A stretch of DNA of 64,000 bases, taken from positions 39,620 to 103,619 of the IMG/VR virus record IMGVR_UViG_3300001525_000014. One strand, written 5' to 3'. The stretch comes from a virus. Below are positions 59,573 through 59,644 of the stretch, piece after piece; position 1 is the first letter of the stretch; each line of letters begins with the position of its first letter. A program made the position numbers and the translations under genes. The notes below the pieces were generated by a model that did no database searches, was not told where the DNA came from, and saw only the letters and a program-made list of their open reading frames with translations.

Positions 59573-59644
59573 TCGCCCTAGTAGGAATCAAACCCACTTC
59601 TTCTGTTTTAGAGACAGAGGTAATAGTCAATATACGATAGGGCA
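59573..59644 (-). tRNA. Amber-suppressor tRNA, anticodon CUA (reads UAG)
   Basis: The reverse complement folds as: acceptor UGCCCUA/UAGGGCG; D arm GUA-(loop)-UAC; anticodon stem UCUGU/ACAGA with loop CU-CUA-AA (anticodon at 59609-59611); 4-nt variable region; T arm GUGGG-UUUGAUU-CCUAC; discriminator A. CCA is not encoded. The short variable arm excludes class-II (Leu/Ser/bacterial Tyr) ancestry. Confidence 0.8.

Follow-up and report, generated by a model that had tools for sequence, protein, structure and literature searches.

A phage tRNA with a CUA anticodon and the reading of UAG as glutamine in a crAss-like phage

What reads UAG in this phage, and as which amino acid, is the question raised by a small tRNA gene at positions 59573 to 59644, minus strand, of the 64,000-nt stretch of viral DNA that was analysed here (the window; positions 39,620 to 103,619 of IMG/VR record IMGVR_UViG_3300001525_000014). 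An initial annotation, made from the sequence alone, had taken the gene for a phage-encoded suppressor tRNA with anticodon CUA and, most likely, a tRNA-Gln backbone, and had regarded it as the factor that enables roughly 350 TAG triplets to serve as sense codons. Our analysis leads us to conclude that the gene very probably specifies a working amber suppressor tRNA, through which UAG is read as glutamine. The window, which covers part of the phage genome, belongs to a crAss-like gut phage (Crassvirales, Suoliviridae, near Burzaovirus). Its DNA is ~81-86% identical to that of crAssphages cr7_1 and cr124_1 (Oafivirinae, Burzaovirus), and no closer genome has been deposited; these two are also nearest in the phage backbone (~85% at the nucleotide level), and both possess another, common allele of the tRNA(CUA).

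The tRNA gene and the amino acid read at TAG

59573..59644, minus strand: amber suppressor tRNA, anticodon CUA, very probably Gln-inserting; window-type allele of the UGCCCUA lineage (ARAGORN, Rfam, covariation, codon evidence and lineage)

ARAGORN placed a tRNA (anticodon cta) on the minus strand at 59572-59644, and the Rfam model RF00005 matched 59573-59644 of that strand over its full length (46 bits, E=1.3e-6; gathering score 29). This was one of only three Rfam tRNA matches in the 64-kb window, and the only tRNA within it to have a CUA anticodon. The 72-nt molecule folds with a 7-bp acceptor stem that includes a U1.G72 wobble, a D stem of G10-C25, U11-A24 and A12-U23 followed by a U13.U22 mismatch, an 8-nt D loop, a 5-bp anticodon stem, a 4-nt variable loop (AGAA), and a 5-bp T stem closed by the T loop TTTGATT; the discriminator is A73, and CCA is not encoded. 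Its 7-nt anticodon loop, CU-CUA-AA (C32 U33 C34 U35 A36 A37 A38), has the U33 and the purine at position 37 that are expected of a CUA suppressor. The ARAGORN drawing bore out every anatomical detail of the initial annotation, namely the 72-nt minus-strand cloverleaf, the CU-CUA-AA loop, the 4-nt variable region and the 3-bp D stem, and both predictors accepted the fold, ARAGORN with the anticodon in the CUA register.

We examined the constraint on this fold in an alignment of 11 sequences, made up of members of the same lineage and of ordinary tRNA-Gln. In this alignment 94.8% of cells were paired, as against 41-48% once the partners were slid, and 17 of 21 pairs showed compensatory changes, including pairs of the anticodon stem among window-type variants; none of 500 shuffles reached the observed values. 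The sole pair often broken was 1:72 (U-A, U.G or U.U). Between the common allele and the window allele, both partners have changed in three contacts (G19-C56 to A19-U56, A15-U48 to U15-A48, and G12-C23 to A12-U23). An identical or near-identical tRNA gene is present in 6 viral contigs and in RefSeq NC_055902, and the window-type gene is 97-100% conserved among phages in which the protein of the adjacent endonuclease gene is 63-88% identical. The RefSeq copy, KNV60_gt02 of crAssphage cr131_1 (NC_055902.1), is annotated as tRNA-Gln and is identical to the window tRNA at 71 of 72 positions, with U rather than G at position 72; IMG/VR contig IMGVR_UViG_3300012344_000017 contains an identical copy of it. 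Phage cr131_1, which is assigned to the genus Cacepaovirus, unlike the Burzaovirus-like window phage, has the same GIY-YIG endonuclease gene directly downstream of the tRNA. The suppressor tRNA gene is thus genuine and structurally constrained.

We observed that reading TAG as a sense codon extended the longest open reading frame (ORF) in the window from 514 to 4306 aa and roughly doubled the lengths of ORFs of at least 100 aa; reading TGA or TAA as sense did not raise the longest ORF in the window. In-frame TAGs number 336 in the minus-strand ORFs of at least 150 aa, of which 26 out of 30 contain them, and two plus-strand ORFs add 10, for a sum of ~346 that agrees well with the initial estimate of roughly 350. 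The large genes from 59553 down to position 3 all lie on the minus strand and end in TAA or TGA only, with 10 TAGs inside the terminase gene and 17 inside the portal gene.

The window proteins, with TAG written as X, were compared by tblastn with six crAss-like phages, among them the cultured phages PhiCrAssBcn17 and DAC15 and Flavobacterium phage FPSV-S30, over a range of protein identities from 66% down to 25%. Among the 207 aligned cells that faced a TAG, Gln accounted for 53 (26%, against a background of 3.6%), Lys for 23, Glu for 22, and Gly and Trp for a single cell each. This profile is that of the window's own CAA/CAG codons (Q 0.26, E 0.16, K 0.11) and is unlike those of true Glu, Lys, Trp and Tyr codons, which are conserved at 45-59%. 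When the empirical substitution profile of each amino acid was used as a model for TAG, Gln gave the best log-likelihood, with Glu at -75, Lys at -82, Tyr at -274 and Trp at -401 relative to it. In the alignment with cr124_1, a close relative, Gln-type codons (TAG 28, CAG 21, CAA 8) were found opposite 57 of 72 window TAGs (79%), and in the reverse comparison this was the case for 59 of 82 cr124_1 TAGs. In the window genes the base after TAG showed no bias relative to all codons, and TAGs were evenly spread along the genes, so that there was no trace of context-dependent read-through. By these observations TAG is a third synonymous Gln codon, and the residue seen in aligned homologues is the one that a Gln-type tRNA body would predict. 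Taken with the presence of a sole CUA tRNA in the window, this upholds the role of enabling factor that was first attributed to the gene. As a practical consequence, the contig needs to be annotated with TAG as Gln.

It should be noted that the core finding is an ordinary one, a clean instance of something already published and validated by experiment. The presence of suppressor tRNAs in crAss-like phages has been documented (Yutin et al. 2021, PMC7886860), the reading of TAG as Gln has been proven by proteomics (Peters et al. 2022, PMC9523058), and charging by the glutaminyl-tRNA synthetase (GlnRS) of the host has been proposed (Borges et al. 2021, bioRxiv 10.1101/2021.08.26.457843). The suppressors of these code-15 crAss-like phages resemble that of the window in being phage-encoded CUA tRNAs, in the assignment of TAG to Gln, in the recoding of mostly virion and late genes, and in the location of the tRNA within a stretch that the standard code suffices to read; we found no essential difference between the two. 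The Suoliviridae are presumably the 'delta' crAss-like group, named in the code-15 work among the groups that use non-standard codes.

A lineage of dedicated suppressors

We scanned for tRNAs having the acceptor 5' strand TGCCCTAT and the T-stem end CCTA, whatever their anticodon, and recovered 80 viral tRNAs (19 distinct sequences, on contigs of ~5 to 270 kb; loci L258-L332), all 80 of which read CUA. The UGCCCUA lineage, as we define it, is characterized by TGCCCTAT, CCTA, A73, a 4-nt variable loop and the anticodon CUA, and the window allele, which has each of these features, belongs to it. A common-type D arm, GGTGTAAYGG..AGCAC, is present in 75 of the 80 lineage tRNAs; where a close variant of this arm occurs in non-suppressor phage tRNAs, the tRNA is a Gln tRNA in 95 of 105 instances. 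Isotype profiles were made with nhmmer from ~750 phage tRNAs, with the anticodon masked and with bystander tRNAs only, and for the 75 common-type tRNAs these profiles placed Gln at the top (about 20-51 bits), although by a margin of just 1-4 bits for L135 (which is identical to the cr7_1 tRNA), L280, L286 and L323. L280 is intermediate between the window allele and the common type: its D arm is of the Gln type, its T stem is of the window type, and it has G72.

Among bacterial genomes (L336-L429), the lineage acceptor and D arm were found together only in Gln(CUG) tRNAs (23), Gln(UUG) tRNAs (22) and CUA tRNAs (11). The CUG versions are almost all from Bacteroidales, and have the acceptor stem, D arm, T arm and A73 in common with the common suppressor. 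Many of the CUA copies in bacterial genomes lie on contigs of ~100 or 186 kb inside metagenome-assembled genomes, and these contigs, having the size of crAss-like genomes, are putatively of phage origin. They include L376 (101.6 kb) and L398 (101.0 kb), both from Segatella copri, and L383 (186 kb), from a Bacteroides sp.; co-binning with Segatella copri gives a weak hint as to the host of Burzaovirus-like phages. In addition, the viral contigs L259, L261, L267, L273, L296 and L308 (~160-190 kb) contain an extra, unrelated type of CUA tRNA, for example TCCCCATTAGTATAATGC..., beside the lineage suppressor.

As judged by these sequence comparisons, the lineage is a Bacteroidales tRNA-Gln(CUG) in which G36 has become A. 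This descent, shared by most of the crAss-like CUA suppressors recovered, explains why they would be acceptable to the host GlnRS. An identical change of one anticodon base is known from E. coli supE (glnV44), in which tRNA-Gln has passed from CUG to CUA by a G36 to A substitution, inserts Gln at amber codons and is still charged by GlnRS. The supE tRNA is, however, a weak chromosomal suppressor in a cell that uses the standard code, whereas the window suppressor serves hundreds of obligatory sense TAGs. Neither a single lineage derived from tRNA-Gln(CUG) nor the endonuclease-linked allele that we describe below is reported in the papers that we consulted on code-15 crAss-like phages (PMC7886860, bioRxiv 10.1101/2021.08.26.457843).

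The acceptor end of the window tRNA agrees with this derivation. A comparison with tRNA-Gln of the host clade, of the kind suggested in the initial annotation, showed that the acceptor stem and A73 match Bacteroidales (Odoribacteraceae) tRNA-Gln(CUG) at 13 of 15 positions. The argument for tRNA-Gln from a U at position 1 also held: among phage tRNAs U1 is found in 73 of 94 Gln tRNAs (78%), and in 0 of 50 Glu, 2 of 43 Lys, 3 of 22 Trp and 0 of 55 Gly tRNAs. The combination of U1, G2 and A73 occurs in 24 of the 94 Gln tRNAs and in none of the Glu, Lys, Trp or Gly tRNAs. Exclusion of Leu, Ser and Tyr ancestry on the basis of the 4-nt variable loop was likewise sound.

TAG usage around the tRNA and the weighing of alternatives

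The features that bear on the use of TAG in the window are the following.

3..58124, minus strand: virion, packaging and giant-protein block of 28 genes, 26 of them with in-frame TAG (homology to annotated cr124_1 terminase, portal and major head protein)
58205..58750, minus strand: dUTPase gene, TAG-free, in the downstream flank of a 1005-bp segment described below (Pfam PF00692, 78 bits)
60025..61815, minus strand: four small TAG-free genes directly upstream of the tRNA cluster (0 of 13 Gln codons are TAG, P=0.003)
62488..62958, plus strand: divergent 156-aa gene with 8 in-frame TAGs, the first at codon 3 (homology to cr7_1 gp71)
62955-63140, plus strand: divergent ORF with 2 in-frame TAGs

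The six genes around the tRNA cluster, from 61815 to 58205, contain no TAG, and the genes downstream are full of it. In the GIY-YIG and dUTPase genes taken together, 0 of 16 Gln codons are TAG (P=0.0008). The share of TAG among Gln codons is 35% for the virion block, and rises to 75-88% in a gene for a 700-aa tail protein (52489-54591) and a 161-aa gene (54670-55155). Two giant ORFs, at 3-12896 (minus strand, >4297 aa) and 25046-32539 (minus strand, 2497 aa), hold 86 and 52 TAGs, respectively. TAG is absent from the major head protein gene (41915-43450, minus strand; 0 of 18 Gln codons, P=0.0003) and from a 376-aa gene (37692-38822, minus strand; 0 of 11, P=0.008), which could mean that genes expressed at a high level avoid a less efficient codon, provided that the product of the second gene is abundant too. 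In the divergent 156-aa gene, for which searches of Pfam and PHROG gave no match, 8 of 11 Gln codons are TAG; its product is 84% identical in amino acid sequence, over the full length, to cr7_1 gp71, and four of the TAGs are conserved.

A scheme that would account for this arrangement, and that has already been published as a model for code-15 phages, is as follows. The tRNA gene, which heads the virion and late block on the same strand, would be transcribed from a stretch readable under the standard code. (A scan for sigma-70 promoters and terminators around the tRNA cluster found sites no more often than in shuffled sequence; it did not cover promoters of Bacteroidota or of phage RNA polymerases.) Since CCA is not encoded, the transcript would require maturation by host enzymes. 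The enzyme most likely to charge it would be GlnRS of the Bacteroidales host. The acceptor end is still that of tRNA-Gln in this host clade, with its UGCCCUA 5' strand, weak 1:72 pair and A73, and G10, U35 and A37 are kept as well. In E. coli, GlnRS recognizes its tRNA by elements that include G10, U35 and a weak 1:72 pair, and CUA anticodons as such also attract GlnRS. Borges et al. argue along the same lines. Once charged, the tRNA would decode the ~346 in-frame TAGs as Gln in competition with release factor 1 (RF1), and the TAG-bearing genes would be completed only when the tRNA is present. Charging by GlnRS, the timing of expression and the way in which RF1 is outcompeted are steps that we infer.

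Several observations weigh against this interpretation, some of them bearing on the decoding scheme and others on the identity of the amino acid. With TAGs present in the divergent gene at 62488-62958, a simple picture in which only the late block is recoded is incomplete. The giant ORFs with 86 and 52 TAGs would require near-complete suppression at each codon, and the window offers no explanation for neutralisation of RF1; about a third of the phage genome lies outside the window. With regard to the tRNA body, the masked isotype profiles rank Glu or Gly at the top for the window allele (17-25 bits) and give Gln 11-16 bits, and the D arm is of the Gly(UCC) type, positions 8-28 (59616-59636) being identical to a glyT-type tRNA-Gly(UCC) at 19 of 21 positions.

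The Gln-type backbone first proposed for this tRNA therefore stands in part. The codon evidence, the acceptor end and U1 speak for it; anticodon-masked scoring, which had been suggested as a check, did not call the window allele Gln, and the supposed likeness of the D stem to tRNA-Gln proved to be a likeness to tRNA-Gly(UCC). Bacteroidales tRNA-Gln and the common suppressor allele both have G12-C23 and U13.G22, in contrast to the window D arm (GTAT/TTAC), with its U13.U22. We had also considered the window-type D arm as Gln-specific, as it is present in tRNA-Gln(UUG) of PhiCrAssBcn17, and abandoned this when a motif scan returned 24 distinct Gly sequences and 8 Gln sequences. Raw pairwise identity to 36 reference tRNAs of PhiCrAssBcn17 and DAC15 did not separate the isotypes. 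A search for a UUG or CUG tRNA with the exact window-type body gave no result, and two of eight 18-mer matches, L011 and L012, are chance matches and not tRNAs. The suppressor looks mosaic, with the acceptor end of a Bacteroidales tRNA-Gln (13 of 15 positions) and Gly(UCC)-like positions 8-28, a composition that may have arisen by recombination between tRNA genes or by convergent rewriting. What carries the Gln assignment is the codon evidence, together with the acceptor end and the membership of the lineage, and not overall similarity of the tRNA body.

If the isotype profiles and the Gly-like positions 8-28 are taken at face value, the gene could specify a functional tRNA that inserts Glu or Gly, or else Lys or Trp, whose tRNAs are also one anticodon change away. 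We regard this as very improbable, because the residues that face TAG (Gly and Trp once each, Glu 22 and Lys 23 times among 207) follow the substitution profile of Gln, and TAG exchanges with CAG and CAA in cr124_1. In addition, the acceptor end shares only 2 of 15 positions with tRNA-Gly and lacks G1-C72, U73 and C35C36, and, as noted above, U1 is not found in the Glu or Gly reference tRNAs. Pyrrolysine is suggested only by the ARAGORN label "tRNA-Pyl", which is the default name that the program gives to any CUA anticodon. In tRNA-Pyl, which is accompanied by pylS/pylBCD, the anticodon stem has 6 bp and the variable loop 3 nt, and the D loop is very small, whereas the molecule considered here is a standard cloverleaf with a 5-bp anticodon stem, a 4-nt variable loop, an 8-nt D loop and a TTTGATT T loop. 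TAG, moreover, aligns to Gln, and the lineage derives from tRNA-Gln(CUG); the pyrrolysine reading is already refuted by structure and codon evidence.

Also to be weighed is an arrangement in which something else decodes TAG, whether a suppressor of the host, a different phage factor or a tRNA whose gene lies beyond the window, the gene under study being redundant or serving mainly to disturb host translation. Such a situation has some precedent, in that published surveys found suppressor tRNAs in just ~40% of TAG-recoded phages, and suppressors in some phages without recoding, and there is room for a further tRNA in the third of the genome beyond the window. Against it are the 97-100% conservation of the gene beside an endonuclease of which the protein is 63-88% identical, the retention of one CUA allele at the locus in every relative, and the maintenance of tRNA structure by compensatory changes and of tertiary pairs by double changes. 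A CUA tRNA, furthermore, is not known from the standard-code Bacteroidota that are hosts of Crassvirales. We consider this arrangement improbable, and retain the view that the gene at 59573-59644 is the operative, Gln-inserting decoder of UAG.

The GIY-YIG cassette and neighbouring elements

The tRNA gene is flanked as follows.

58768..59553, minus strand: GIY-YIG homing endonuclease gene, 261 aa, no TAG, starting 19 nt past the tRNA 3' end (Pfam, PHROG)
58770..59774, minus strand: 1005-bp segment made up of tRNA-Met, tRNA-CUA and GIY-YIG (blastn breakpoints against relatives)
59701..59774, minus strand: initiator-like tRNA-Met(CAU), inside the segment absent from cr7_1 and cr124_1 (ARAGORN; Rfam, 64 bits)
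59936..60009, minus strand: tRNA-like element with an aberrant anticodon arm (Rfam, 38.4 bits; ARAGORN at a lowered threshold only)

The GIY-YIG protein matched PF01541 (45.5 bits) and the PHROG homing endonuclease family (8e-30), with sub-threshold matches to a helix-turn-helix/NUMOD1 module at C-terminal residues 227-249. It fits the plan of a free-standing homing endonuclease, with a catalytic domain and a C-terminal DNA-binding module, the matches for the latter being weak. Nucleotide homology with cr7_1 and cr124_1 by blastn ends at window position 59775 and resumes at 58769 (the counterparts in L001 are 3255 and 3177). The same flanks enclose 77 bp with the common tRNA(CUA) allele in cr7_1 and cr124_1, and 1005 bp in the window, so that the cassette shows a presence/absence polymorphism with exact boundaries between close relatives.

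In the lineage sample, a GIY-YIG ORF was found 14-32 nt downstream of all 5 window-type tRNAs, truncated to 79 aa in L010; L017, cr131_1 and the window likewise have one beside the tRNA. Of the 75 common-type tRNAs, none is accompanied by a GIY-YIG gene, and three have an HNH endonuclease instead. Homologous GIY-YIG genes (36-44% amino acid identity) follow another type of CUA tRNA at a distance of 14-15 nt in cr6_1 (Bearivirinae) and in cr56_1 and cr109_1 (Loutivirinae), where the tRNA(CUA) and GIY-YIG pair is located just upstream of the terminase gene. Such pairs are thus found in three subfamilies of the Suoliviridae, and TAG is absent from all of these endonuclease genes. What appears to be new here, from the loci compared, is a divergent suppressor allele that is always directly upstream of a GIY-YIG gene, in a segment that replaces the common allele.

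A free-standing GIY-YIG homing endonuclease is known from the tRNA cluster of phage T4, where SegB drives inheritance of the tRNA region (PMC2330249). SegB and the window GIY-YIG gene are alike in being free-standing genes near tRNAs, in their presence or absence among related phages, and in the co-conversion of neighbouring tRNA genes that is to be expected. Cleavage and preferential inheritance have been demonstrated for SegB and would only be surmised for the window, in which the linked gene is the code-switching suppressor itself. In the papers that we consulted on suppressor tRNAs of TAG-recoded phages, no connection to homing endonucleases is drawn.

We put forward, tentatively and with some doubt, that the suppressor tRNA and the GIY-YIG gene may form a mobile homing module. 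The endonuclease would target the common tRNA(CUA) allele in phages that lack the endonuclease, and the linked allele, rewritten with its fold kept, would escape cleavage. The rewriting would then consist of the three double contact changes and the Gly(UCC)-like D arm, the latter possibly gained by recombination. We had also considered a recent horizontal transfer of the cassette, and rejected it as unproven, as the divergence of the cassette between the window and cr131_1 (~75% identity at the nucleotide level) is equal to that of core genes. For the same reason, the parts of the cassette could equally well have been inherited together, vertically and over a long time, with a single event of replacement. 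If the homing proposal were true, a key part of a genetic-code switch would move among crAss-like phages by homing, which would help to explain differences in code between closely related phages. The strict linkage of allele and endonuclease suggests a testable route by which the machinery of code switching could be moved or exchanged between phages.

The tRNA-Met(CAU) in the cassette has a C1xA72 mismatch and A11:U24, which are hallmarks of initiator tRNAs, and only two of the three G-C pairs in its anticodon stem. A tRNA-Met beside the suppressor was also seen in cr125_1 and L015. In the tRNA-like element at 59936-60009 the acceptor, D and T arms are perfect, and the anticodon arm consists of just 3 G-C pairs and a loop of 8 nt, GAUAUAAA; the element is no standard decoder. 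Its sequence is 97-99% identical across eight related phage loci, with flanks that diverge, and varies only at positions 26-27 and at one base of the loop. An annotated 'tRNA-Cys(ACA)' of cr50_1, considered as a relative of this element, turned out to be unrelated. Transfer-messenger RNA (SsrA) is annotated in cr125_1 (L004, 126-575) and in cr50_1 (L006, 1-75), with the tag peptide GNFYVTDYTRIAA according to ARAGORN. Finally, L014, a contig that also has a window-type suppressor, contains at 1381-1494 a match to the RAGATH-1 hammerhead ribozyme (57.6 bits, barely over the gathering score).

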